Assembly: GCA_964016885.1 (NCBI GenBank)
Contig: OZ024745.1
Coordinates: 51,770,001-51,834,000 of the forward strand
Direction of reading: 5' to 3'
Length of the DNA stretch: 64,000 bases
Origin: Eledone cirrhosa
Taxonomy: Eukaryota
A model generated the notes under the pieces. That model ran no database searches. It saw only the letters and a program-made list of their open reading frames with translations, and had not been told where the DNA came from. Positions 6,376-47,930 of the stretch are shown one piece after another. Position 1 is the stretch's first letter. Every line of letters begins with the position of its first letter. The translations under genes and the position numbers were made by a program.

Positions 6376-6668
6376 GTGTACGTATCCTTTCACCCACGCA
6401 TTCACACACAAATATATTTGCACACCTCTACAAAATACATATACTCACAATTCACATATTTATACTTACATATATATACACATGCATACACATATATATA
6501 CACACATGTATTCATGTACATACATACGCGCTCATGTGTATACATTTTCATACTCAACTTATCTTTATATACACACGTATAGACACACACATATATACAT
6601 ACATACTCTAGTCCATGTGTACACACATACACACACATACACATCTATATACACATATATACATACAC

Positions 6669-6701
<33 letters not shown>

Positions 6702-6711
6702 CATATATATA
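6376..6711. repeat. (TA)/(CA) low-complexity tract, target of the PLE insertion
   Basis: Direct reading of the sequence. Confidence 0.9.
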
Positions 6712-6713
6712 TA

Positions 6714-6825
6714 GGAACCAGTAAGACCCCGACAGCTGAGCTCAAGCCGTTTCGACGGCTAATTCTGGACTAAATGAAAATTTATCCTGGTATTTAAATA
6801 GCCGATCTTCTCAAGGGGTAATTCC
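6714..6825 (-). ncRNA. Type I hammerhead ribozyme, U3-A8 core variant (3' pLTR copy)
   Basis: Sense strand: ggaat t acccc UUGAGAA ga(u)cggcua...uagccguc GAAA cggc u ugagcuca gcug UC / ggggu cuuacugg uucc. Stems I-III all pair. GUC cleavage is predicted between 6731 and 6730. Confidence 0.8.
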
Positions 6826-7926
6826 ATATATGGTCAAAGTGATTGTCAAAAATCAGTAGTAATTCTGTGGTTGCAAATTAGTAGGGGAGATGGTGGCTAA
6901 ACCTGCCAGTAGGAGAAAGAGGGGAGGGGGTGGAGTAGACCCAATCAAGCGTTGGTAGTGCCAGCTACAGCTGGGCATGAGGTCAAAGAAGATACAGGGG
7001 AGGGGGAGGGGGAGGAAGTCGGAACGGTAGGTAGAGCAATGGGGGGTAGAAATAGGAAAGAAAAAATACTGAGAGTGAAGAAAAGCAAATAAGTGTAAAG
7101 AAAAAAGTAAAGTAAATTAAATTCTACGACCTAGGTGTCAGGCTATTGTTAGGCGAGAATAAAATAAATAAAGAAAGAAAGAAGTAAATAAATAAATAAA
7201 TAAATAAATAAGGAAATAAGTAAAAGAACTAGGTGGGACGAAATAGGCAAGGACCCTTTTAAGAGGTATAAGTACGTAAATGATACGGTGACGGGTCAAC
7301 AAAAGGGGCCAAAATACTAAAGAGACTACCACGAAATAAACAATAAAGGTTTCCATCCCGGGCCAGCAACGGCCCAGTGCAGCAAAGTGAACTTGTACGA
7401 GATAATAATTCTGAGTCCCGAGAAAAATATATACTAATGCTAACTCTAAAAGATCTAAAACAAGCTACATGAAAGTTCGTACGAAATAAAGGTAGAATAC
7501 GGAGAAATAAATTCAGAATCCACCCCGCCCAGAAGAAAAGCGAAGCAAGAAATACTGAAACGAAAAAATAAGGCATAAGTGCCACTAAAAAATATAGAGA
7601 GCACAGATAATAGTGGGAGCGGTCGGAAAAAGGGGGCAAGTATCCGGGGTCTAAGCCAACTGCTATAAAGGGCGGAGTCCGCCAAATCTATCAAAGACTA
7701 GGGGAGGGGGGGTGGGGGTACTAAGGCTACATGGGGCCAAAGGGCAGCCTCGGGTGGGCGAGAAAAGACGCCGACAAAGGAGAAGAGCTGGAGTAGAAGG
7801 ACAAAGGAGAGAGGGGGGAAGGAAATAAAGGAAGCGATAAAAGAATACAAAGAAGATCTTACGTCTTCCTTGGCAAGCAGGGGTTACCCATTGCAAAATC
7901 GGCAACTGGGGTGTTATAGCCCTAGT

Positions 7927-10080
7927 CTACCCCCCCGGGTCATTATGGGGTTTGAGGGCGAGGTAAGTCCTACGCAATCTATGTTTACATGCAGTAACCA
8001 GTTCATCTTTCTTGTTTAGGAGTTGGTCCGTCGAAAACAGCATTTGTAAAGTTTCCTCCGAGCATAAATTGCACGGACGGCGTCCTCCCGTGTAAGAATT
8101 GGCTCTGGACAGTAATCTCCAAGTGAGATCATAGGTGATGTTGTTGTCCTTGAGGTCCCATATGTGGCCCGAAAGTGTAGTGGCGTGACGCCGGGCCGGG
8201 TTTCGGAAGGTATGTCTATGTTGGTATAGCCGGGTCTTGAAGTCACATGCGGTAAGTCCTATATAGGCTTTGTTGGAGGTATCCGTCCTCACGTTGCACT
8301 GGTAGATCACATTACGGTCTCTGCATCTATTGTCGAGTGGGCAAATAGATCTATCCGGGCAGTTACACCTCCTGGTCGGTTCTCCACTGCTATTTAGGTT
8401 ATTTCTGCCATCGGGGTTGAGTTTTTTGTTGTTAGAGGAGACGATGTTTTGTGCGAAGTTTGGTGTAGTGCTGTAAGAGAGTTTGATGGTATTTTTGTTA
8501 ATTATGTTGTGGTAGCGGTGTTGTAATGGGAAGTGTTTTTCAATGAGCCTAAAGAATAGTTTCCCGATGGGAGTAGTCACCTCTGCGTTGTGGGGAGGAT
8601 TGAACCATGTTACATTGCGTGAGCGGCGGTGTCTCCTGCTGGTTCCGCTAATGGGAGCTGGACAGTAGGATATTTCCTCCCGGAAACCACTCCGCTTGAG
8701 GGCCTGGTTGTAATAAGGCGCATGTTCATCGAATATCCGCTCATTAGCTGACAAACGGGATATGCGGAGGGAGATGTTTTTGACCAGGTTGTTTGTGATG
8801 TTCCTAGGATGGTTTGATCGGCGGTGGATGTAGTGCAGATTGTCATTAGGTTTCCTGTATGGGTAGTACAGGTCGTTTTCGAGGTCGAGGGTTACGTCCA
8901 GGAAGTTTACTCGGGTCAGGGACGTTTGTAGGGTTATTTTAAATCCCCAGTCGCGGAAGAATCTGATTAATTGTTTCCGGACCCGATCTGTACTACTGGG
9001 GTTGTACCCTTTAAGGGTAAGGAGCCCATCATCACGGTACAATCCACCACCGAATGCAGGAAACATATCAGTGAGTTTGGCTATTAGGAATAATCCTATA
9101 AGATCAGTGACCTCCGCCGAATCCGTGGCGCCCATGCTGACGTCGAAGGGTGAGTCGGGAGCTCTTTTTATCCATTTAGAGTCGTCAAAGAGTAAGACTG
9201 TCTTCCTGGCGTGGAGGATGATTTTTCTTTCCTGGTCGGTGATGGGCACGAGTGTTTCGGCGAAGTCCAAGGCGGCAGTAAGTAGCGGTAAGGTAATTGA
9301 AGCATAGTAGCTCTCTATGTCGAACTGTATGAATTTAGTTTCTCGTTTATCCTCCATATTGCTGAACCAGGAGATTACTTCCTGGGTGTTGATCCATAGG
9401 CTAAGTCGGGTGTGTTGCTTGACTTTTGGTATCACGCGGTCTAGCATTTTTTTGCTGATTCTCCCTATGTCGGACTTCGTTGGGTTAATAAGCCTGATGG
9501 AGGGTTTACGGTCAAAATCGGATTTATGGTCCTTCAGTGTGAAGTATGGTGTCCGTGGGTCTAGAGGTTCCGTGCGGTCGGCGACCCTGAGGCTGGAGGT
9601 GATTTGTTGTCCATCTCGATTTATGTCCTCGATGCAAGAGTGGTTGGCCTTTTTATAGGTGGAGTTTAGGCTGCTCCTGATCAGTGTGTGGTATCTGTCA
9701 GGGTTGACAAAGTATAGGTTCCCAATTTTATCCGAATGCACCATGATGTCATTTGTGTTATCATACTCTGTTAAGTTGCTACGGAGTTTTTGTAGGAATC
9801 GGTTATGTCTGGGTTTAAATTTAATGTTCTTGACCAGTTGGAAGAGGTCATTCTCGAAGGGTGCGAGCAAGGGGTTCAGTGGCGGAGATTTGTAGGTAAT
9901 AAATCCGAATCTCTCCTTGGTTCCGAAGTCTTGGTTGTCGCGATATCTGTCATAGAAAAAAGTTCTCCATCTAAGTCTTTTCGCAAATAGATCAATTTTT
10001 TGCGTGAGCATCCGAAGGTAAAGTTTTTTCGGTGGGATTGGGATGTTCTTGGTAGAGAAGTCAATGTTGTGTTTTCGCAT
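7927..10080 (-). CDS. PLE polyprotein: reverse transcriptase + CxC linker + C-terminal GIY-YIG endonuclease (717 aa)
   Basis: Uninterrupted ORF, open from a TTG at 10227. The likely ATG is at 10080 in context cgcaccATG. RT motifs: FDIESYYASI, MGATDSAEVTDL, GLYRDDGL, VNFLDV, YIHRRSNHP. Further motifs: WFNPP, linker CNCxxxxxCxxxxxC, VIYQ...YIG..FKTRLYQH, CNLCSEE, terminal CKH. Confidence 0.93.
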   Translation of the reverse strand: MRKHNIDFSTKNIPIPPKKLYLRMLTQKIDLFAKRLRWRTFFYDRYRDNQDFGTKERFGFITYKSPPLNPLLAPFENDLFQLVKNIKFKPRHNRFLQKLRSNLTEYDNTNDIMVHSDKIGNLYFVNPDRYHTLIRSSLNSTYKKANHSCIEDINRDGQQITSSLRVADRTEPLDPRTPYFTLKDHKSDFDRKPSIRLINPTKSDIGRISKKMLDRVIPKVKQHTRLSLWINTQEVISWFSNMEDKRETKFIQFDIESYYASITLPLLTAALDFAETLVPITDQERKIILHARKTVLLFDDSKWIKRAPDSPFDVSMGATDSAEVTDLIGLFLIAKLTDMFPAFGGGLYRDDGLLTLKGYNPSSTDRVRKQLIRFFRDWGFKITLQTSLTRVNFLDVTLDLENDLYYPYRKPNDNLHYIHRRSNHPRNITNNLVKNISLRISRLSANERIFDEHAPYYNQALKRSGFREEISYCPAPISGTSRRHRRSRNVTWFNPPHNAEVTTPIGKLFFRLIEKHFPLQHRYHNIINKNTIKLSYSTTPNFAQNIVSSNNKKLNPDGRNNLNSSGEPTRRCNCPDRSICPLDNRCRDRNVIYQCNVRTDTSNKAYIGLTACDFKTRLYQHRHTFRNPARRHATTLSGHIWDLKDNNITYDLTWRLLSRANSYTGGRRPCNLCSEETLQMLFSTDQLLNKKDELVTACKHRLRRTYLALKPHNDPGG

Positions 10081-10253
10081 GGTGCGGGTGAAATGAATTG
10101 AGCTTAGCGGAAAAGTCTGGATACGGCGTGGTAGGGTCGGAAAGTGCTCTACTACGGGAGTAGGAGCTAGATAACGAAGGAAATGTGGTAAGGAACCAGG
10201 TGGACCATAACGCACCAAAGTACTCAATACTTGAGGTAGTAGAGTGGGTAATA

Positions 10254-10365
10254 GGAACCAGTAAGACCCCGACAGCTGAGCTCAAGCCGTTTCGACGGCT
10301 AATTCTGGACTAAATGAAAATTTATCCTGGTATTTAAATAGCCGATCTTCTCAAGGGGTAATTCC
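10254..10365 (-). ncRNA. Type I hammerhead ribozyme, U3-A8 core variant (5' tandem pLTR copy)
   Basis: Identical to the 6714-6825 copy. Predicted cleavage at 10271/10270, 190 nt upstream of the ATG. Confidence 0.8.
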
Positions 10366-11460
10366 ATATATGGTCAAAGTGATTGTCAAAAATCAGTAGT
10401 AATTCTGTGGTTGCAAATTAGTAGGGGAGATGGTGGCTAAACCTGCCAGTAGGAGAAAGAGGGGAGGGGGTGGAGTAGACCCAATCAAGCGTTGGTAGTG
10501 CCAGCTACAGCTGGGCATGAGGTCAAAGAAGATACAGGGGAGGGGGAGGGGGAGGAAGTCGGAACGGTAGGTAGAGCAATGGGGGGTAGAAATAGGAAAG
10601 AAAAAATACTGAGAGTGAAGAAAAGCAAATAAGTGTAAAGAAAAAAGTAAAGTAAATTAAATTCTACGACCTAGGTGTCAGGCTATTGTTAGGCGAGAAT
10701 AAAATAAATAAAGAAAGAAAGAAGTAAATAAATAAATAAATAAATAAATAAGGAAATAAGTAAAAGAACTAGGTGGGACGAAATAGGCAAGGACCCTTTT
10801 AAGAGGTATAAGTACGTAAATGATACGGTGACGGGTCAACAAAAGGGGCCAAAATACTAAAGAGACTACCACGAAATAAACAATAAAGGTTTCCATCCCG
10901 GGCCAGCAACGGCCCAGTGCAGCAAAGTGAACTTGTACGAGATAATAATTCTGAGTCCCGAGAAAAATATATACTAATGCTAACTCTAAAAGATCTAAAA
11001 CAAGCTACATGAAAGTTCGTACGAAATAAAGGTAGAATACGGAGAAATAAATTCAGAATCCACCCCGCCCAGAAGAAAAGCGAAGCAAGAAATACTGAAA
11101 CGAAAAAATAAGGCATAAGTGCCACTAAGAAATATAGAGGGCACAGAGAATAGTGGGAGCGGTCGGAAAAAGGGGGCAAGTATCCGGGGTCTAAGCCAAC
11201 TGCTATAAAGGGCGGAGTCCGCCAAATCTATCAAAGACTAGGGGAGGGGGGGTGGGGGTACTAAGGCTACATGGGGCCAAAGGGCAGCCTCGGGTGGGCG
11301 AGAAAAGACGCCGACAAAGGAGAAGAGCTGGGGTAGAAGGACAAAGGAGAGAGGGGGAAGGAAATAAAGGAAGCGATAAAAGAATACAAAGAAGATCTTA
11401 CGTCTTCCTTGGCAAGCAGGGGTTACCCATTGCAAAATCGGCAACTGGGGTGTTATAGCC

Positions 11461-11884
11461 CTAGTCTACCCCCACCGGGTCATTATGGGGTTTGAGGGCG
11501 AGGTAAGTCCTACGCAATCTATGTTTACATGCAGTAACCAGTTCATCTTTCTTGTTTAGGAGTTGGTCCGTCGAAAACAGCATTTGTAAAGTTTCCTCCG
11601 AGCATAAATTGCACGGACGGCGTCCTCCCGTGTAAGAATTGGCTCTGGACAGTAATCTCCAAGTGAGATCATAGGTGATGTTGTTGTCCTTGAGGTCCCA
11701 TATGTGGCCCGAAAGTGTAGTGGCGTGACGCCGGGCCGGGTTTCGGAAGGTATGTCTATGTTGGTATAGCCGGGTCTTGAAGTCACATGCGGTAAGTCCT
11801 ATATAGGCTTTGTTGGAGGTATCCGTCCTCACGTTGCACTGGTAGATCACATTACGGTCTCTGCATCTATTGTCGAGTGGGCAA
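11461..11884 (-). pseudogene. Duplicated 3' end of the PLE ORF (GIY-YIG part) inside the tandem pLTR
   Basis: Copy of 7921-8344. A 1-nt insertion changes the C-terminus from DPGG* to DPVGVD*. Confidence 0.9.
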
Positions 11885-12335
11885 CGTACTTATGCCTCTT
11901 AAAAGGGTCCTTGCCTATTTCGTCCCACCTAGTTCTTTTACTTATTTCCTTATTTATTTATTTATTTATTTATTTACTTCTTTCTTTCTTTATTTATTTT
12001 ATTCTCGCCTAACAATAGCCTGACACCTAGGTCGTAGAATTTAATTTACTTTACTTTTTTCTTTACACTTATTTGCTTTTCTTCACTCTCAGTATTTTTT
12101 CTTTCCTATTTCTACCCCCCATTGCTCTACCTACCGTTCCGACTTCCTCCCCCTCCCCCTCCCCTGTATCTTCTTTGACCTCATGCCCAGCTGTAGCTGG
12201 CACTACCAACGCTTGATTGGGTCTACTCCACCCCCTCCCCTCTTTCTCCTACTGGCAGGTTTAGCCACCATCTCCCCTACTAATTTGCAACCACAGAATT
12301 ACTACTGATTTTTGACAATCACTTTGACCATATAT

Positions 12336-12447
12336 GGAATTACCCCTTGAGAAGATCGGCTATTTAAATACCAGGATAAATTTTCATTTAGTCCAGAATT
12401 AGCCGTCGAAACGGCTTGAGCTCAGCTGTCGGGGTCTTACTGGTTCC
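12336..12447 (+). ncRNA. Type I hammerhead ribozyme, U3-A8 core variant (inverted pLTR copy)
   Basis: ggaattacccc TTGAGAA gatcggcta...tagccgtc GAAA cggcttgagctcagctg TC ggggtcttactggttcc. Core at 12347-12353, cleavage after 12430. Confidence 0.8.
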
Positions 12448-12549
12448 TATTACCCACTCTACTACCTCAAGTATTGAGTACTTTGGTGCGTTATGGTCCA
12501 CCTGGTTCCTTACCACATTTCCTTCGTTACATATATATATATATATATA

Positions 12550-12923
12550 AGCACTTTAATACATGAATACACTTACATCTAACTATACACATCAAACATA
12601 TATATATATTTACTTATTTATATACATTTTCACATATATATACATACTTATGGACGTTTTTAGACACATTCATTATCGCATATTTGTACCTATTCTCATC
12701 AGCATATCTTTCCATTATTAGTGTGGTAATTTAAGGTTATTAATATATGTTGAGAAGAGATTGTTTTTATATTTTTCTAACTAGATTAAGGTTTATATAG
12801 TTGGGGGATGTCCCTCTTTTATGTAATATTCGGCTTGTAGTGGGAAAAAAGGGTTTTAGTTCTGTGACGGCAGAATAATGTTCGTTCAATTCTGTTATTC
12901 AGCAGTTTCTTCTTGTGTGTGAT
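12550..12923 (-). mobile_element. 3' end relic of another Hydra-type PLE with decayed hammerhead (~12648-12706)
   Basis: Minus-strand ITHKKKLLNNRIERTLFCRHRTKTLFSHYKPNIT* matches the LLN..E....CRH C-terminus. Downstream is tatg CTGATGA ... AAAA c GTC cata, with stem I intact and GAAA lost. Confidence 0.6.
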
Positions 12924-21066: not shown

Positions 21067-23125
21067 TATATATATATTTATTTATTCAGGTTTGAAGGTT
21101 CACCACTGGATAGAGCTGGTCAATCTTAATGTTATAATATTGAGAGTACTCAACGTAAAGCAGTTCAACCGTCTTCGTTTTCGTAGTTGGTGGTGCTAGT
21201 ACGGAGTTATAATAAAATGACAGGAGACTGGACTTGTGTAAATCCTTGAGAGGTTTATTATACTATGATCATTTCAATGACCGGGTTCCGTATGAATCCG
21301 GTGATATCATCAGGTATTCGAAATACAATAAATGAATGTAATAGGTAAAATCCATGGGTCTGAAAATCAAAGACAGGAGGACGACCGACCATCTAGCATC
21401 TTCCACTTTAGCCGGTCGCCCTCAATTGTTGGCTATTCGGTCTACTTGAGGCCATCTGGTGAGGGAGGGGGGGGGGTGTAAAGCTTTTAGTGTGTTACTA
21501 CCCTCCCGGTCAAATAGGATGGGAGCGGGAGGTAAATCAGCGCCAATATCATGCTACACGAAAAAAGACAGAAAGAAGGGCGAGGAAAAGAAAGAAGAAG
21601 AAAAGTCAGCGTTAATGTCGAGCTACAAGAAGAAGACAGACAGAAAGATGAAGAGAAGTCCGTACTAATGTCAAGCTAGTCAGGCCAGGAGTGGCGCGAA
21701 AAAATGTAATTCTAAAGGACCCCTATCTTAACAGAGGTATATATTATAGCAGAGGTATATATTATAACAGTGGTAAATATAGTGGGGGGTCTGCCTGTTA
21801 TAATGTGTGAGCAGAATATTGAACGTTAATTTTTGTTTAGATCTATAGGATGAAGTTACAAACATTTAATATCTAATATTAACATTACAAAATTAAAGAA
21901 ATTAGAAAATTGAAAGTTAAACAATTTAACATTTTTAACGTTTTGGTTGCGAAGTTTAAGTAAATTAAGAGTCTTTTATGAAGAAACTTAAATTGTATTA
22001 TAGAGTAAAGATTATGTCTTTGTTTAGCAGTCAAACAGCATGTGGCGAATGCAGGGTCTGTCGGCCCAACCTTACCGCGTGTCAGCCCTTCCGAGTGATA
22101 TCGCCTAGCGAAAGATACGGAAATCAATTTTTCCAAGAACTCTAGAAATGTATAACAGGCTTCAGGTGCGCCAGAGGGAAGTCAGCCCTCATCGTTAGGC
22201 CATCCTTGTACCAAACCAGTACTATTAATCTACCCAGGAGGGGGATTTTATTAAGTAGAGGGAGACGTGATACATCTAATAGTTATGATTAGGTCTCCAA
22301 TTTAAAGGTACTATATGGCGGTCAAAAAACCGGCTGCGCGCCGGGCCCCTGGGGCGAATCAGTCCGCTCCTAGTAGTTTCATTTACCGAAAGAAGGGGAA
22401 ATTTACTTTTCCAAGCACTCAAGGTAGGCCTATGCGCCAGGAGGCCGGTCCCGCAGCCAGGAAAACCAACCCTCCAGTCCGACAGAAAATTGGAACTTTA
22501 AATTATGGTTTAGATTTATAGGATGAAGTTAAACATTTTTTTGACCGACATATAGTACCTTTAAATTGGAGACCTAATCATAACTATTAGATGTATCACG
22601 CCTCGTTCTACTTAAACAAATCCCCCTCCTGGGTAGATTAATAGTACTGGTTTGGTACAAGGATGGCCTAACAATGAGGGCTGACTTCCCGCTGGCGCAC
22701 CTGAAGCCTGTTATACATTCCTAGAGTGCTTGGAAAAATTGATTTCCGTATCTTTCGCTAGGCGATATCACTCGGAAGGGCTGACACGCGGTAAGGTTGG
22801 GCCGACGGAGCCTGCAGTCGCCGCATGCTGTTTGACTGTTAAACAAAGACATAATCTTTACTCTATAATACAATTTAAGTTTCTTCATAAAAGACTCTTT
22901 CTTTACTTAAACTTCGCCACCAAAACCTTAAAAATTTTAAACTGTTTAACTTTCAATTTTCTAATTTCTTTAATTTTATAATGTTAATATTAAATATTGA
23001 ATTTTTGTAACTTCATCCGATAGATCTAAACAAAAATTAACGTTCAATCTTCTGCTCACACATTATAACAGGCAGACCCCCACTATATTTACCTCTGTTA
23101 TAATATATACCTCTGTTAAGATACG
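21067..23125 (-). mobile_element. PLE non-coding (pLTR/UTR) insertion with ~590-bp inverted repeat (21724-22317 / 22549-23122)
   Basis: The arms are near-identical reverse complements, giving the mirrored spurious ORFs 21885-22136 and 22730-22981. A minimal hammerhead lies near the left end and TA tracts flank the insertion. Confidence 0.7.
21260..21317 (-). ncRNA. Minimal type I hammerhead (partly decayed)
   Basis: atac CTGATGA tatcaccgg attc atacg gaac ccggtcatt GAAA tgatca TA gtat. Loop III is palindromic and there are two mismatches at the base of stem II. Confidence 0.6.
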
Positions 23126-24711: not shown

Positions 24712-24716
<5 letters not shown>

Positions 24717-24890
24717 AACGAGTAGGACCCCGACGGCTGAGCTCAAGCCGTTTCGACGGCTAATTCCAGAATTAACCGTCGAAACGGCTTCAGCTCAGCC
24801 GTCGTTCCTATTACCGACTCTACTACCCTAAGCATTGAGTACTTTGGTGCGTTATGGTCCACCTGGTTCCTTACCACATTTCCTTCGTTA
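24712..24890. mobile_element. Short fold-back copy of the 6712-12529 PLE termini
   Basis: taggaacgagtaggaccccgacggctgagctcaagccgtttcgacggctaatt, then the inverted arm plus a tail ending ccttcgtta. Inserted in (TA)n. It carries only the 3' half of the ribozyme. Confidence 0.9.
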
Positions 24891-25145
24891 TATATATATA
24901 TATATATATATATATAATCATCTACAGGACTAGAACGAAACAATTCTAGTCCTGTAGAAGGTTTTCTATATTAAACTTTTTACTCTGCACTGTATTGAGT
25001 ACCTTACTTACTGTGGTTTCCTCCGATTGAAGCCGCGATAACTTTTATATATATATACTTACAGGAGGAAAATTTAATATCATAGGTTAATAATTCGGGG
25101 ACAAAACCTTCGAGACGCAGTTATTGGACCCACACTTGTAAGGAA

Positions 25146-30208: not shown

Positions 30209-31445
30209 CGCGCGCGTGTGTGTGTGTGTCTGTGTGCGTATAAATATGTACATATGTCTGTTCATCGGCAGGTAAGCATGGAAATTCAGGGAAGAAGGAG
30301 AGGGTGAAAGAAAGAGGAGAACTAAGATTTCTGATTCCAATGCATATAAGACTTCCTTTATCCTTTTGTTATAATATCATCCGGTCTGTCACATATGAAC
30401 GAATGCTCAATTATCTAGACAATACAAGCGATATGGAAGGATTTAGTTTGCCCTACCAGTATTTCAGTAGTTTGTGTACACGCAGATTGAAGGTTTAAAA
30501 TGCATTCAATCTAAATATCTAACTTTATTCAGAAAGAGTTGTATAGAATTGCAAATTTGGAACAATAGTCTTGGTTATTGTTGCTTTCTCCGTCGGACAA
30601 ATGCATACATTTCTATGAATGCGCTTATTAACCAGAAACTATATTATTTCTTGGTGCACACTTAGAGATCAAAAGCAGTCTAAATATTGGCATACTTATT
30701 GCTAGTTGGTGTCTATAGAATCATTACTGCAATTTATACGAATTTGTCACTTCACTGAATACATGTTAGTAATATTTAGGTATGAAATTATGTGACAGGC
30801 TATTCGACCAGGTCAGACCAATGTTCAATCACACTGCTATATTGATGATATTCTCTTTATTGGCGAATTTCCTATTCCGATTTCTTTATTCATTGAACCG
30901 TAATACGTTTCAATACAATGAAAACAACTTACGGTTATTTGTCTCGAGATTCTGAAAGCTTTTAATTCTCCAAATACAATGTAATTAGTTAAAACCCCCG
31001 AAATCAATCAATTATCCACAATGCCAGACACACCTAACTACGTAAAAATGTAAATGACAATTATCAATTTACATGCGCGTTTCTATGATCATTTCAATTT
31101 ATCCCTTTAAATAGAAGAAATAACATTCTCATCTATAAATGTACATATACCTAAATACATACAATAATGATTAATGACGCACATCAGAATCAGGCACGGA
31201 TACACAAAATCACACACTCAGAAACAGACACTCACAAGCACAAAGGTAGATAAACCGACACGCTGAGATTGTTGCTGTTGATTGCAAAATAATTAATTTT
31301 GCATAGTGAACGAAGGACTCAATAGCATAGTAGAATACATACAATATGTATTATAGAAATGGATTCTACAGGACTAGAATGTTATACACACACACACTTA
31401 TAAACACACACACACACACACACACGCATACACACATATATATAT

Positions 31446-31624
31446 AACGAAGGAAATGTGGTAAGGAACCAGATGGACCATAACGCACCAAAGTACTCAA
31501 TACTTAGAGTAGTAGAGTGGGTAATAGGAACGAGTAGGACCCCGACGGCTGAGCTCAAGCCGTTTCGACGGCTAATTCTGGGCGTCGAAACGGCTTGAGC
31601 TCAGCCGTCGGGGTCCTACTCGTT

Positions 31625-31629
<5 letters not shown>
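31446..31629. mobile_element. Second short fold-back copy of the PLE termini
   Basis: taacgaaggaaatgtggtaagg...ccgtttcgacggctaattctgg, followed by inverted cgtcgaaacggcttgagctcagccgtcggggtcctactcgttccta. Inserted in (TA)n. Confidence 0.9.
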
Positions 31630-40223: not shown

Positions 40224-40369
40224 TGTGTGTGTGCGTGTATGTTAGTGCATGTGTGTATTAAAATCATATATGATCATCATACTTAAGCTCAAAATTAACA
40301 CGATAGCAAATGTTATTGCCAGAACCAAATAAGGAATGAACTGGCAAAATATATATATCGTTAAATGGA

Positions 40370-40556
40370 TTGGCAGTATCGGTGGAGGGTCGGACGCCAT
40401 GCTTTCCAATATAGTTACGTCCCTTTACGATCTGAGTTCAAATCCCGCCGAGGTTGACTTTGCCTTTCATCCTTACGAGGTCGATAAAATAAAGTACCAG
40501 TAATGCACTGGGTAATTGCTGGCCTTGTGCCTAAAGTAGAAACAATTATTATTATT
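40370..40556 (+). mobile_element. tRNA-derived SINE
   Basis: A-box-like tggcagtatcggtgg, B-box gagttcaaatccc, core gactttgcctttcatcc..ggtcgataaaataaagtaccag (recalled as resembling the Nin/Deu SINE core), and an (ATT)n tail. Multicopy within the window. Confidence 0.85.
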
Positions 40557-41090
40557 ACTTTCAAAGTAAAGGGTGTCATGAATGATACAAAATCAAACAT
40601 ATTTCTTCAGCACACGATAGAATTCAGAGAATAAAATCGAACCTTAATCATTATATGAAAGTGATTGAAATATATTCATACACATTTCAGTGTACACTAA
40701 GAGATATCAAAACATAGAACTAGAGACAAACTACACTTAAAGTAAGACTACATGATTCGTTGAGTATCTTATTAAATCTAATAAAATATTTAAAACAAAA
40801 TACTTGTTAATGATAAATTATATGTCACTCATATGTATCTCCACAAAATCAGAATACATTTCACCGAATAACGGCGATATTTTGAAAGGGATCATCAGTG
40901 AGGGTATTCAAAATCATCTAACCTCATTCAATGCAGGGTTGAAAGTGGCTAAACGCACATGGTATCAACACATGAAATTTAGCACTCGCAACGACATGGA
41001 GGGTTCTTGTTGGCATGAAATAGCAGTCCAGCCTCTCGACATAAACAGCTCAGCACATAAAGAGCAGATATATTATTATTATTACTTTGG

Positions 41091-41275
41091 ATTGGCAGTA
41101 TTGGTAGAGGGTCGGGCGCCATGCTTTGAAGCATAGAGTTACCTCCCTTTATGATCTGAGTTCAAATCCCGCCGAGGTTAACTTTGCCTTTCATCTTTAC
41201 GGGGTCGATAAAATAAAGTACCAGTAATGCACTGTGTAATTGCTCGCCTGGTGCCAACAGTAGAAACGATTATTA
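41091..41275 (+). mobile_element. tRNA-derived SINE, same family
   Basis: Collinear with 40370-40556. Confidence 0.85.
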
Positions 41276-41818
41276 CTTTCAATCGACAAAGTATACATTT
41301 TCTGAAAATTATGAACCGGGGATTATATGAATCTCTATAATTACGTTATCACATTACGATTCTATTAATTTATTTTTTAAATAATTTACAATAAATGACA
41401 TACATTGGATACACATAAATCCGGTGTATCTAAACAAATATTTAAGTGAATGACCGCCAACAAAATGAGAATTGGGATGAATCAATTTAGAGATGTTATG
41501 GTAAATCGAAATAGAGTGGGCAATGTTTATGCAATATTTCAGTTTTCTGCAAATTATCTAATATTTATATTTTTTGGAGAGAAAAAGTTAGACCGCTGAT
41601 TTTGTGATTGATAATCATATATTGTGACTGGCTGTCGTAACTAATTCTTTCTGTTTTAAAAGATCGATTGATCTACGTGACAGAAGTATTCAATGGCTTG
41701 CACGGCGTCATTAGAATCTTGATCGATCATTGATTGGTTCGGATAAGTATTCGATCATCGTCCCATTTACACGCGGTTGCACACATACACACTCTTACAC
41801 ACATACACGCACGCATAT

Positions 41819-41853
<35 letters not shown>

Positions 41854-41938
41854 ATATAGATATGTGTATATAATATATATATCATATATACAATATATAT
41901 ATATTATTTATACTTAGATTATATGCACACACACACAA

Positions 41939-42008
<70 letters not shown>

Positions 42009-42316
42009 TCGTGAGTGTGTGTGCGCGTGAGTGTGTGTGTGACAGTGTGTGTGTGAGTGTGTGTGCGTGTGTGTAATTGTGTGGGACGTTGCGTGTGATT
42101 ATGTGTATGTCTTCCTATGCGAAATGAAACCGGACATTGCTCGGATGCTGAGAATGTCCGTTACTCATTAAGTTAAAGAGATTCTGGACAATAATTGTTT
42201 ATTTTTGAAGACACTCATTCAGCGTGGATATACATCTGTGAACAAATCGGTTAAAGTAAGAAGCATTAGGAAAACATGAACTTTGAAATATGCTCCTCCT
42301 AATGCAAATAACCGTA

Positions 42317-42497
42317 ATAACTGTTTCTACTTTAGGCACAAGGCCAGCAATTACCCAGTGCATTACTGGTACTTTATTTTATCGACACCGTAAGGATGAA
42401 AGGCAAAGTCAAACTCGGCGGGATTTGAACTCAGATCGTAAAGGGACGTAACTATGCTGGAAAGCATGGCGTCCGACCCTCCACCGATACTGCCAAT
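42317..42497 (-). mobile_element. tRNA-derived SINE, same family
   Basis: Reverse complement of the same consensus. Confidence 0.85.
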
Positions 42498-45400
42498 CTA
42501 CCACCCTTCCGTAATAATAGCCGATCATTATAAACAAAAGTTGAGAAATCTGGTGAAAAACTCCTTGAGGCAGACAGAATTGAATGGAACAAATGGCGAA
42601 TATTTAAATTGCACATCTCTCAAATGTGGCTTTTACACGACTAGAAATGTTTAATTTGAAAGAAATCATCAGGGATTTCCTGATGAATTCTTTCGAATGA
42701 TTACTTTCGCATCTACTAATAATGATTACTTTCACATCTATTAATACATTAAAAACTCATAAAAATCCTGAAAATATCCTTACCTTCACATATTTACCGA
42801 CAGAAACACAATAATAAACAAGCAAACATACACACACTCATATATACGACCACCCTCTACATTTGCCACAAGCAAAACATATAAGCTCTCCTGAAGCCTC
42901 TTGTCATTCATGTATTTTGTATTACCATCTAATCCCATGTGTAGTTTAACATCATACTTAAAACATTTTGTATTCAATGGATTGGAATAAACAATCAATT
43001 AATCTTTCTATGAGATTAAAATAATTTATTTATAGAATCACTCTCACTACGTCTTTGGACAGAATATAAATAATTTTTATCGGGAAGGTCTCCTATACAT
43101 TACATATGGATCATTTCCATATCTTATCTAAATCCCACCTGATTCGTACTTTGGAAAAAAACTTACTGCCATTCAAGAATCTAATTCCTGAATTATAATA
43201 TACAGCTCGATATCTATTCTATATAATCACACTTCTGAATGGATCAATCTATGCGAATTAATCTTCGATACCAAATGTTCTATGTCAAATACCTAACTAG
43301 TGAATATATCCATTAAATCAGAACTCACAAGCTTACAGAGTAACTAAGTAGTTCTAGACAGCGGTGTTGGTTTTGTAGATTTTTATAACCTGAATAACCC
43401 TCAAACATATAAAGTTAAAAAAAAAATAATAATTGCCCATAAATTATTTAAGAAATACACCTCGAAATTTACTATTTGCAGTGATCTCAATATCGTACAA
43501 CTCTAGCGATTCGATGTGAGATGAGAACATACAGTTTGTAGAATAATATATAAAAAGAAAATAACTAAATAACATGACAAACTTTCACAGTGTTGTTTTC
43601 TCACTTTGATTCTAGCTATCATATTTAAATACAGTAAAATATATGGAGAAGAGGAATACATTTTTCACTCCAAACTCGCGGCACCAAAGACATGAAGATC
43701 GTTAAATAGAAGGCTAAAAATATTCTGTTTGTTGTCATAAAAGGATTAAGGAATTCATAAAATGTGACAAACTAGCCACATTGTCACGTATCATTACTCG
43801 ACATACAGTTCTTTATACTTCAATATAGTAACACAATGGTGTCAAATTGCAGTAACATGAACACTGCGCTGCACAATAATCAGGCAACAATATGACCATG
43901 ATTTCGCCATAAAAATAAAATAGGTTACAGACGTCTAATAGGAAATATTATTGTTTCATAATATAGTATCATCTTTAAATTAATTAATGAACGCAACATT
44001 CTGAAATTATATATTGAGTGCAGACATTAGAAAATGTATTCACCTATCATTGTATAGAATATGGTTGATTAGAATTTAATTGAGTGTAGCTCTCTCGCAA
44101 TAAATAAAGTTATATTATATATTTGTCAACAGCTGCATAGGATGTAGATCCAATATTTTAAAGAGAATACTGATAGTTACTTGCAGCTGTTAGGTGTATC
44201 AAATAGATGGAGTACTAACTCATTTTCTTTTATTTGAGATTGGCTTTCTTCAGAATTGAAAGTAATGTTTGTACTATAACGATCAAGAGAAATAAAAAAC
44301 AACACTTGTACTCAGAACTCGGGTTTCACTTTCATCATTATATAAACAAATCAACGTCGTTTTAATCAAAAGAACCTTTAGAAGTTACTTCACACAATGT
44401 GAGCAAAATTTTACCTTTGATTTATTTATTTTGTCTGAAGTCTGAAATGTACTCAGATAGGCTTCATTTGATAACAGTAAGTTAATTATCGTGTGTTATT
44501 TCGTTAACAGGGTAATGTTTTGACTAAGGTGATAATCATATTAGGTACAATTACAGTGAGAAAAGTCTTATGTAGAAATATCTATTGTTTTATAATTGAA
44601 TTCCACTAAATATATGAAAAATTAGATCTTCTGGAAATATACACTAATCAAATTCATTTAGAAATAGAATAATTTATTATCGTTATCGGGGAAAATGACA
44701 TGCCATTTTTGAAACTAAAAATGAAAGTACTTTCTTTAAAGCATATTTAAATGTTTATATATATATTCGGTAATGGAAAAGTTTGGAAAACAAATTGTGT
44801 TTTATATTCTACGACCATTTATATTCACCGCTAAAAATTAACATATTTATTCCAGATATTTTCTTTCCGTATTTCATATCTCACCATACATTCCTGTTGA
44901 CAACTTATTCAGATAAAGATATATTGTGAAAATAATCGTACCATGTGACACAGCTGTTCAAAATATTTAAATTAAATTAATGTAGGAAGAGCGAACGTTT
45001 GGCAAAACAAATAATATTGTAGTGGGAATTTTGGCATGCTTTAACTTTTACTTTTCCAATTTCGCCTGTCAATAAATGAATTACCATTTACAGCTTGATG
45101 GAAATGCATTAGACTACCAAAATATATCTTATGTTCATAACAATTCCTGTTTTCAGCTACAGTTTGTAATTTGCTAAGGACTCGATTAGCTTTAATAAAT
45201 CAGAGCTATTAAAATATTCATTACACGGGGATCGATCCAATATTTTGTCCTATGTGCCGGCAATGTAGTTCCACAAAAATACAATATTATTATCAGAGGA
45301 GCATGTAGAGAAGCTGTACCATGTTGAAACACCCAGTAATGAATACATATTTGGAGTACTTGATTTGTATTTAAAATTAATTTATGTAAGATGCAAGCAG

Positions 45401-46468: not shown

Positions 46469-47930
46469 ATGGAAACACAAACGGCACAAAAAATATTGAA
46501 CAATAAAAAAACACAACTTAACAAATGAACTCCACAACCATGAATCAAGCAATTGAGAACAACAAAAACAACAAACACAACAACGACAACAATGAAAACA
46601 ACAACAACAGCAACCATAAAACATCTTTGGCGACAGTAAGTAAAGGAACATTTACAAATATTGATATTTCTAATGCGAAGGAAATGATCAATGAAGGAAA
46701 AAAATATATTACCTTCGAAGAAAAAGGGGTATTTAACATCACCTCTCCACCACAAATGAAAGCCTATGCGAAGGACTGTGAGTTTTCGCACGATTTTGAA
46801 CAAACAAAACACAAACCGGCTTTCCTTACTCAAGGCGAAATTGACATCGTCTTTAAAGAGGCAATGCCGGAAATACAATACATACAAAGGGCTAAACTAT
46901 ATGGAAGCATATCGGTGCTCTTCAAAAGTGAGGCCATTGCGAAAAAATACTCAGTGACCCCGGTCACATACATGGGAAAATTAACACAAAGAATAAACAT
47001 CACCTGTATACCACCCAACATTAACATCTGGTGGATTCTGGCAGGGTTCTTGGAGGACGATGAAGACACAATAATGTCGATTCAAAAATCCACAAGAAAC
47101 ACCTGGAACGGCTTGGAAATTTTGGTCCAAATGAAACCGGACAGAATTTCCAAGATACCAGAAAAGGTGTCAGTAGACAATACAAACTATATACAGATTT
47201 CGGCAGCACCTCACATTTAAAGGCCTCCTGTCTCCTCTTACGACCCCCCCCCCCAAAAAAAAAAATTACTTCTACCAACACCAACTCCAAAATCACACCA
47301 ACAACAACAACACACAAAACAAGCAAACACACAAAAACAAACAACTGTTCAACCACAAACAACAGAAAAAACACAAACAATTCCCCTGAAAAGCACAGTC
47401 CCACCCCATCCAACACTACCACAATCACACACACAAACACACCATCACCTCACAACATACCCATCCCACACGCTCCTGATGACGATTCATCACCCGACGA
47501 GGCCACTTCTCCAACCACAAGTGAAGATTAAGTAGAGCTTCATAAATAAAAACAAAACAAAAAAAGAGACACCACTAAGCCACAAAAACAACAACACAAA
47601 CACCACCACGATTAACCCCCCCCCCCCCCATTACCAACAAAACAAACACCAACACCACCCCAAACACAAATGCCCACCATAGAAAGAAAACTACAAAATG
47701 AACAACAAACCAAAACAACACAACAAAAAAACAAACAACAATACACATACATTAACAGAAACAACAAAAACCTAATGGAGGTCATCTCCCAAGTCTCCAA
47801 AGTAGAAACTGAGGGGAAAACTTTTGTAAAAGCAGACTCTCAACCACACCCAAAACTAATAAGGGTTTCGATAGAAACATATCAGAAATTGAAAGAACAG
47901 TTTTCACAGGACGTAGGCAGCCCCTGCTAA
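46469..47930 (+). pseudogene. LINE ORF1 (disrupted; N/T/P-rich low-complexity segments)
   Basis: ORF 46525-47220 and 47670-47930 pieces lie immediately upstream of ORF2. Confidence 0.65.

Follow-up and report, generated by a model that had tools for sequence, protein, structure and literature searches.

How does a retroelement bounded by self-cleaving ribozymes come to leave insertions longer than its own unit? The question is raised by a 64,000-nucleotide (nt) stretch of Eledone cirrhosa DNA (GenBank assembly GCA_964016885.1, contig OZ024745.1, positions 51,770,001 to 51,834,000 of the forward strand; hereafter the window), in which two hammerhead ribozymes flank an intact reverse transcriptase (RT) gene. 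A sequence-only reading had proposed that these ribozymes excise an exact unit-length RNA, which could be closed into a circle and reverse transcribed more than once round. Based on the copies of the element in the assembly, we consider it on balance probable that this is a young Hydra-clade Penelope-like element (PLE) whose ribozyme cut in vivo, and whose long insertions were copied repeatedly round a single cut-to-cut RNA, probably a circular one.

Anatomy of the insertion and its ribozymes

We give positions within the element in unit coordinates, in which the sense strand is the minus strand of the window, +1 is window base 10270 (the first base past the predicted cut) and -1 is the C of GUC. 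The unit, running from 10270 to 6731 on the minus strand, measures 3,540 nt, begins directly 3' of GUC and has GUC as its final bases; it is the predicted excised monomer. It comprises a 190-nt leader (10081..10270, minus strand) followed by the start ATG at unit position 191, an intact 717-aa open reading frame (ORF; 7927..10080, minus strand) for a telomerase-like RT with a putative C-terminal GIY-YIG endonuclease, and a 3' untranslated region (UTR) of 1,196 nt (6731..7926, minus strand) that holds neither AATAAA nor ATTAAA on the sense strand. These measurements bear out the leader, full ORF and roughly 1.2-kb 3' UTR proposed earlier. The leader contains both presumed RT start sites (+20 and +100/103) and one out-of-frame upstream ORF of 13 codons.

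The main arm of the insertion (6711..11884, minus strand) joins this full unit to an upstream, 5'-truncated partial unit (10271..11884, minus strand; the second pass), a pseudo-LTR (long terminal repeat) arrangement whose outer end lies 20 nt beyond the downstream cut site. The direct repeat (6711-8344 and 10251-11884) is 99.6% identical, with 4 substitutions between partial and full unit and 2 one-base gaps. The more-than-unit insertion, given earlier as 3540 + 1633 bp, stands as such, with a repeat of 1,634 nt of which one base is shared with an inverted arm. This arm (11884..12529, plus strand, 646 nt) had been overlooked, together with the third hammerhead copy that it bears (12336..12447, plus strand; predicted cut 12430/12431). 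Its outer end lies 99 nt beyond its own cut site, and both outer ends of the insertion, at +20 and +99, are downstream of a cut site. The interval between the two start sites forms a one-sided tail of ~80 nt (12451..12529, plus strand), compared with 30-40 nt in published families (PMC8557442; this and the other articles cited here were covered in part). The insertion is flanked on both sides by (TA)n, at 6660..6710 (a (TA)n-rich flank) beside the +20 end and at 12530..12550 beside the +99 end, and one private allele is common to the full unit, the partial unit and the inverted arm.

The two ribozymes in direct orientation (upstream, 10254..10365, predicted cut 10271/10270; downstream, 6714..6825, predicted cut 6731/6730; both minus strand) are identical and lie 3,540 nt apart on either side of the ORF, at the coordinates first reported. 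Their exact one-unit spacing is not itself evidence of excision, because tandem duplication necessarily produces it. Both the minimum-energy and the centroid fold have type I hammerhead topology, with pair probabilities of 0.48-0.98 for the 17 listed helix pairs; in the predicted fold, the three helices are arranged around the conserved core as in type I hammerheads, and the cleavage site is of NUH type. The motif combines a U3-A8 core, published for Schistosoma Cercyon PLEs (PMC4209133), with a long stem and loop II, a 6-bp stem III and a palindromic loop III, and folds as a monomer. Two results count against the identification: the folding energy is no better than that of shuffled sequences (z -0.52 to +0.05), and an Rfam scan at the gathering score returned 0 matches. 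With z near 0 and Rfam silent, the hammerhead call draws on the core nucleotides being in place (as the U3-A8 variant), the fold and the genomic end pattern described below. Two short head-to-head copies of older family relatives lie in (TA)n elsewhere in the window (24712-24891 and ~31444-31629), and in both a U-to-C change at -4 turns the stem III G-U pair into G-C.

Scars at the predicted cut site

We then examined whether the genomic copies record cutting. The family is young and abundant in the 3.0-Gb genome, with exact matches numbering 10,737 at -23 to +6, 2,173 at -83 to -60, 673 at +2011, 254 at +608 and 151 at +93 to +116 (the match patterns differ in length, and the count ratios are approximate). 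Loci were mapped from the 40 best matches (28 loci, biased to copies reaching at least 150 nt upstream of the cut) and from the first 100 of the 151 matches at +93 to +116 (52 loci), together with the window itself and 6 short pairs.

Breaks in the element sequence, counted with patterns that demand three mismatches just upstream of each position, were concentrated at the predicted cut (307 at -3 to +1, versus 39 at -9 to -6 and 117 at +2 to +5). A hand check of the first 100 listed at -3 to +1 left 80 true breaks after removal of 20 G-run changes or small indels; among these 80, 46 already mismatch at -1, 21 match the C only and 13 match 2-3 bases, and 5 of the 80 are tailed junctions. The same check of the first 100 listed at +2 to +5 gave 58 indels and 42 true breaks. 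Scaled accordingly, the true breaks number ~245 at -3 to +1, versus at most 39 at -9 to -6 and ~49 at +2 to +5. Among 30 mapped break loci, 16 break at +1 and 8 at -1 to -5, the other 6 being indels; in five mapped loci, both arms end at +1 or within 4 nt of it.

The scissile bond itself carries a second kind of scar. A gap pattern placed there gave 39 matches, among which 12 arms (from 11 insertions) carry untemplated A/U-rich inserts of 5-30 nt, including a run of 28 A; the other 27 matches, which are local duplications or G-run changes, were dropped. From the background rate (39 inserts of at least 5 nt in 379,850 aligned columns, mostly one inherited insert), at most 1.1 such inserts are expected in 11,000 arms (p 3e-8). 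At the -7/-6 bond, used as a control, none of 30 examined matches (of 39) held a multi-base untemplated insert, with a pattern that excludes A at the first position and would miss most poly(A) inserts, so that the background rate is the comparison we rely on. The inserts at the scissile bond resemble RNA 3' tails. Nine of the 11 tailed insertions have a partner arm, which stops at +1 in 4, at +2 in 2, at +3 in 1 and at +6 in 1, and crosses in 1; the partner stopping at +6 adjoins an extra diverged piece, and the crossing partner carries an identical insert. A partner stop at +1 to +6 thus occurs in 8/9 tailed insertions versus 0/35 seamless longer-than-unit insertions (Fisher p 5e-8). Tailed junctions and partner stops together indicate that RT jumped between two template ends, a 5' end left free at +1 and a 3' end with a tail at -1, which may have belonged to one molecule or to two.

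These scars could also be read with the ribozyme as a passenger, with RT stalling at stem III or the G-run producing the +1 peak, and repair leaving the inserts as scars. The 13 of 80 ends at -2/-3, several with partner arms reaching -26 to -43, fit that account, as does the small share of cut-site ends, estimated at ~3-5% of arms. We nevertheless regard it as highly improbable: the tail-like inserts fall exactly between -1 and +1 in 11 insertions, one of them with the identical insert in both arms, and in the five mapped loci mentioned above neither arm ends more than 4 nt from +1. Judging from these genomic scars, the ribozyme very likely cuts RNA at the GUC site in vivo. Of the excision proposed earlier, in-vivo cutting and a cut-ended linear template RNA are thereby supported indirectly, by the end peak and by the tails at the bond.

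At loci L161-L189 and L214-L219, we also observed repeated 23-nt duplications of -23 to -1 via a 7-nt near-repeat, up to three of them consecutive, which resemble telomerase-style slippage.

Templates of the longer-than-unit insertions

Cut RNA can be related to the long insertions through the positions at which copying starts. There are 54 longer-than-unit arms, 35 of them with a partner arm, and in 35/35 cases the two arms start at different sites, one near +20 and one near +100/103. The permuted starts that the sequence-only reading had anticipated in copies longer than one unit did not appear, outer ends being fixed at these two sites in the mapped loci and in the survey of longer-than-unit copies; permuted outer ends were accordingly rejected. 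As both RT starts lie downstream of the cut, a cut linear monomer whose ends stay unbridged can give arms of just 20 or 103 nt.

Most copies are short. Some four fifths of arms end at positions from -23 to -83, mostly in the zone from -45 to -25 (10295..10315, minus strand), and extra pieces in complex short copies run from this zone to positions between +160 and +326. The zone probably marks an RNA 5' end, with a start site inside loop II, which would be that of the commonest RNA. An RNA starting near -45 would be without the 5' half of the first ribozyme; being unable to cut at its own 5' end, it cannot supply the excised monomer, which needs transcription from further upstream. This separate, commoner RNA would give rise to the short copies and would be the likelier mRNA; its 3' end could come from the downstream ribozyme, as the 3' UTR has no poly(A) signal. 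In one short copy (L091:5641-6117), a -30/+197 junction occurs twice, as if RT had circled a 226-nt RNA twice, an RNA that is without the 5' half of the ribozyme.

Long arms behave differently at the same place. Among 61 arms of at least 3,400 nt, 7 stop at +88 to +19, 1 at -3 and 53 run past -59, with none ending at -45 to -25. There is no cliff at the upstream cut, since 53/54 crossing arms extend past -59, and 0/35 partner arms of seamless longer-than-unit insertions stop at +1 to +6. Such seamless crossing implies that the long templates were continuous across the bond, either uncut or sealed. The loss per base was 0.07-0.08% in the first pass and ~0.10-0.12% in the second.

Private marks indicate how many units each template contributed. 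Pieces within an insertion differ by 0.23%, versus 0.99% between loci (first 28 loci and the window). Across 40 insertions between one and two units long, first and second pass are in conflict at 6/852 subfamily-informative comparisons, and 37 private alleles are present in both passes (in 17 insertions), versus 39 and 40 that are private to one pass. In one insertion, the first pass, the second pass and the inverted arm all share a 52-nt deletion, the junction of which occurs exactly 3 times in the assembly; differences between these pieces at other sites show that no later homogenisation took place. Another has a 72-nt duplication in both passes, shared with one truncated sibling. Shared private marks in successive passes imply that each long insertion descends from a single unit. 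In the earlier proposal that reverse transcription round a circle produced the tandem, the part that these marks indirectly support is the single unit-length template. Private alleles found in all pieces show a strand bias (T>C 22, A>G 2; p 4e-5) of the kind that RT errors at U would produce; ADAR editing was rejected as their source (sense-strand A>G 2/79 versus T>C 22/79). Alleles present in at least 4 loci are mostly synonymous (20/31), versus 138/435 for private alleles.

A single-unit template continuous across the bond could be a sealed circle, an uncut transcript whose units are alike, or a linear monomer whose ends RT bridges. In the last case, RT would copy a linear cut monomer, jump from its 5' end to its 3' end and repeat, without a scar if the 3' end is untailed. 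Jumps are recorded, in the tailed junctions whose partner arm stopped at +1 and in complex short copies that pass from positions between -30 and -44 to positions between +141 and +545, and jumping accounts for the marks common to both passes. They look inefficient, however, since the partner arm failed in 8/9 cases, whereas in seamless long insertions both arms pass the bond, the main arm doing so twice, and 0/35 partner arms stop there. We consider end-to-end jumping without a circle an unlikely source of the long insertions.

Copying of uncut transcripts is the stronger competitor. Here the ribozyme would cut some molecules, and long insertions would derive from uncut multimeric transcripts of arrays made alike by DNA-level duplication, a scenario in agreement with that of PMC11167929. 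Arrays of 2.4-4.5 units do exist, at least 4/7 show unequal-crossover patterns that copied private alleles into neighbouring units, and one array without a private allele is the nearest neighbour to most of the youngest cluster. The arrays nevertheless account for only 7/54 longer-than-unit arms, yet 17/40 single insertions need a parent that bore marks of its own in two adjacent units. Moreover, 5/7 arrays carry private alleles in all their units that recur at none of the other sampled loci, and thus have no sampled progeny, and transcripts starting at -45 in every unit should often stop second passes there, which 0/54 do. We regard this explanation as possible, though less likely than a circular monomer template, which we favour.

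At least 4/7 of the arrays with two or more full units look like later DNA-level duplications and not like products of a rolling circle, and we rejected multi-unit arrays as rolling-circle proof; 2 show alternating alleles, and assembly error is possible. In the two 4.5-unit arrays (L053-L055 and L056-L058, contig C1), alleles alternate with a two-unit period, which could reflect a dimeric template, duplication of two units at the DNA level or an effect of the assembly.

Several observations weigh against a circular template. A three-way test of 28 three-piece insertions (19,099 columns) found derived alleles in the arm only at 33 sites, in the second pass only at 32, in the first pass only at 19 and in all three pieces at 22; the first pass and the arm share 5 sites (in 5/28 insertions), both passes without the arm 4, and the second pass and the arm 0 (p 0.06). 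The five first-pass-plus-arm sites suit templates with unlike units and are not predicted by a monomer circle, and the imbalance of 5 versus 0 of the opposite kind favours uncut read-through. The unequal-crossover patterns mean that near-identical arrays arise and could feed such read-through; lost homogenised arrays could be the parents of the marked insertions. In the assembly, the parent of the sibling pair with the 72-nt duplication was not found, and among the sampled loci 15 pairs share at least 2 rare alleles, none with a parent pattern. The cut-site scars prove linear cut templates, not ligation. At the window locus, read-through RNA would pass the inverted arm first, and pairing could block the ribozyme; there is no sign that the window locus acted as a source. 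In published work, ribozyme mutants of an Anolis element had no effect on insertion in vitro and RNA sequencing gave no ends at the site (PMC11167929), and Naiads form the same tandems without canonical hammerheads (PMC8557442).

Taking both sides together, a circle is on the whole the probable main template of the long insertions. Read-through RNA with two complete ribozymes would be cut to the monomer. Monomers with a tailed 3' end would stay linear, RT stopping at +1 and occasionally jumping onto the tail; a tailed 3'-OH end is not known to be a substrate for RtcB. Untailed monomers would be ligated, probably by an RtcB-type ligase, as occurs in vitro for retrozymes. The element's protein would nick both strands of the (TA)n target and prime two cDNAs at the two start sites, and these would cross the sealed junction and stop at random after ~1.0-1.4 kb on average. 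Three RNA pools would then coexist: the common RNA from ~-45, cut linear monomers, some tailed (giving arms that end at +1 and rare jumps), and sealed monomers (giving seamless long insertions). The fuller account, an autonomous protein-coding retrotransposon that moves via a ribozyme-cut 3.5-kb circular RNA, copied from two fixed starts onto both ends of a DNA break, with host tailing diverting some monomers to the linear pool, is in our estimate an evenly balanced proposition. Translation from the circle appears improbable.

Some individual loci depart from the usual form. One insertion (L040 with L121) has both arms longer than one unit, at 4.4 and 4.1 kb. At L055 (G000:C1 near 91.49 Mb), ~65 copies of a 55-bp ORF piece (unit 1714-1771) form a minisatellite at the arm junction. 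A (TA)n stretch at L085:3786-6023 (G000:C2 near 356.03 Mb) holds a tandem of seven 299-nt units together with the +103 tail; these units are deletion derivatives of the element that keep all hammerhead strands, and their minimum-energy fold is not a hammerhead. This tandem looks like a retrozyme born from the present PLE.

Clade membership and relation to known systems

Among 7,996 scored candidates, 2,135 qualify as relatives of the protein at E<=1e-20. In an alignment of 25 rows (the element and 24 relatives), residues 252, 315 and 347, which we take to be RT motifs, and residues 590-621, which we take to be GIY-YIG-type motifs, are conserved. The RWK-like and DKT-like motifs read RWR and DKI here, where most aligned relatives have RWK/RWR and DKT; a CxCx5C linker lies at residues 572-580, and CxxC and CxH motifs surround the conserved E and N at 670-676 and 687-700. 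A structure model (predicted local distance difference test, pLDDT, 86.9) found TERT as its best PDB match (E 7.6e-9). Pfam gave 0 families for the 717-aa protein and only weak unrelated hits for the 25 aligned members, and a PDB profile search with the protein gave 0 matches. The C-terminal endonuclease is a motif-based assignment.

The features that define the Hydra clade (PMC8557442) are nonetheless present: a single ORF with RT and C-terminal GIY-YIG, the RWK/DKT-like motifs, the CxCx5C linker and the CxxC and CxH motifs, along with a hammerhead, (TA)n targets (at both flanks here and at most mapped loci) and a partial tandem with an inverted arm and one-sided tail. The sequence evidence makes the element almost certainly a Hydra-clade PLE. 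It differs from the clade as described there in its 3.54-kb unit (generally under 3 kb), its ~80-nt tail, its U3-A8 core and its 6-bp stem III. Three short motifs of the family were not found in the part of that paper's supplement that was covered, and the covered part of its text contains no cut-site end analysis. Membership in the Naiad/Chlamys PLEs was rejected, the endonuclease motifs being C-terminal and not N-terminal.

Identity with the small, non-coding and non-autonomous non-LTR retrozymes was likewise rejected, given the 3,540-nt unit with an intact RT-endonuclease ORF; the element may work like a retrozyme but is not one. Like metazoan non-LTR retrozymes, it has hammerhead-to-hammerhead monomers and tandem genomic copies (PMC7229834; bioRxiv 10.64898/2026.07.22.740005). 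Retrozymes are ~170-400 nt and non-coding, with circles demonstrated in vivo and RtcB ligation in vitro (PMC7229834), and a link to PLEs has been proposed (also in bioRxiv 10.64898/2026.07.22.740005); the present element, in contrast, is autonomous, protein-coding and 3.5 kb long, and its circle is a proposed one. As in the Anolis Poseidon element PAc, the tail is set by two internal RT start sites, targets are AT-rich and both strands are primed (PMC11167929). For PAc, however, insertion in vitro did not require the ribozyme and no RNA ends mapped to the cut, whereas copies of the present element end and carry tails there.

The circle model itself is not new. Cleavage, ligation and more-than-unit reverse transcription of a circle were proposed for PLE hammerheads by Cervera and de la Pena in 2014 (PMC4209133), nearly in the terms of the sequence-only reading, and repeated in a review (PMC6765202). 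The 2014 paper itself says that in vivo evidence is lacking, and its motifs are mostly minimal and dimer-dependent, whereas the motif described here folds as a monomer and genomic scars record its cutting. The function of PLE hammerheads was called unclear by Craig et al. in 2021 (PMC8557442), and the circle was doubted by Frangieh in 2024 (PMC11167929). Self-cleavage can promote cap-independent translation in fungal and plant reporters (PMC13725137). A self-priming antisense model has also been offered (PMC3846280), and the fixed sense-strand ends would disfavour it. Within the literature covered by title or abstract opening, most subscription journals lying outside it, we found no report of genomic copies with a peak of ends, or with tails, at a PLE hammerhead cut, and no direct evidence for the PLE circle model.

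The element is a real new member of a known clade that offers unusually direct genomic evidence on an open mechanism. The role of PLE hammerheads has been open since 2014, with the circle a hypothesis and the ribozyme dispensable in the one biochemical study considered here (PMC11167929). The family contributes sequence evidence for germ-line cutting, for tailing of cut ends and for repeated copying of one unit into long insertions. Should the circle be confirmed, this would be an autonomous retrotransposon with a viroid-like intermediate, and that would account for the formation of pseudo-LTRs and connect PLEs with retrozymes. With its youth, intact ORF, monomer-folding ribozyme and mapped RT starts, the family makes each step testable.

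Elsewhere in the window, a 231-aa ORF with an Asn-rich start (46525-47220) is unrelated to the element. Other long inverted repeats occur at 21785-23081 (545 nt, 95%) and 40368-42498 (196 nt, 94%), possibly fold-back insertions of other families.

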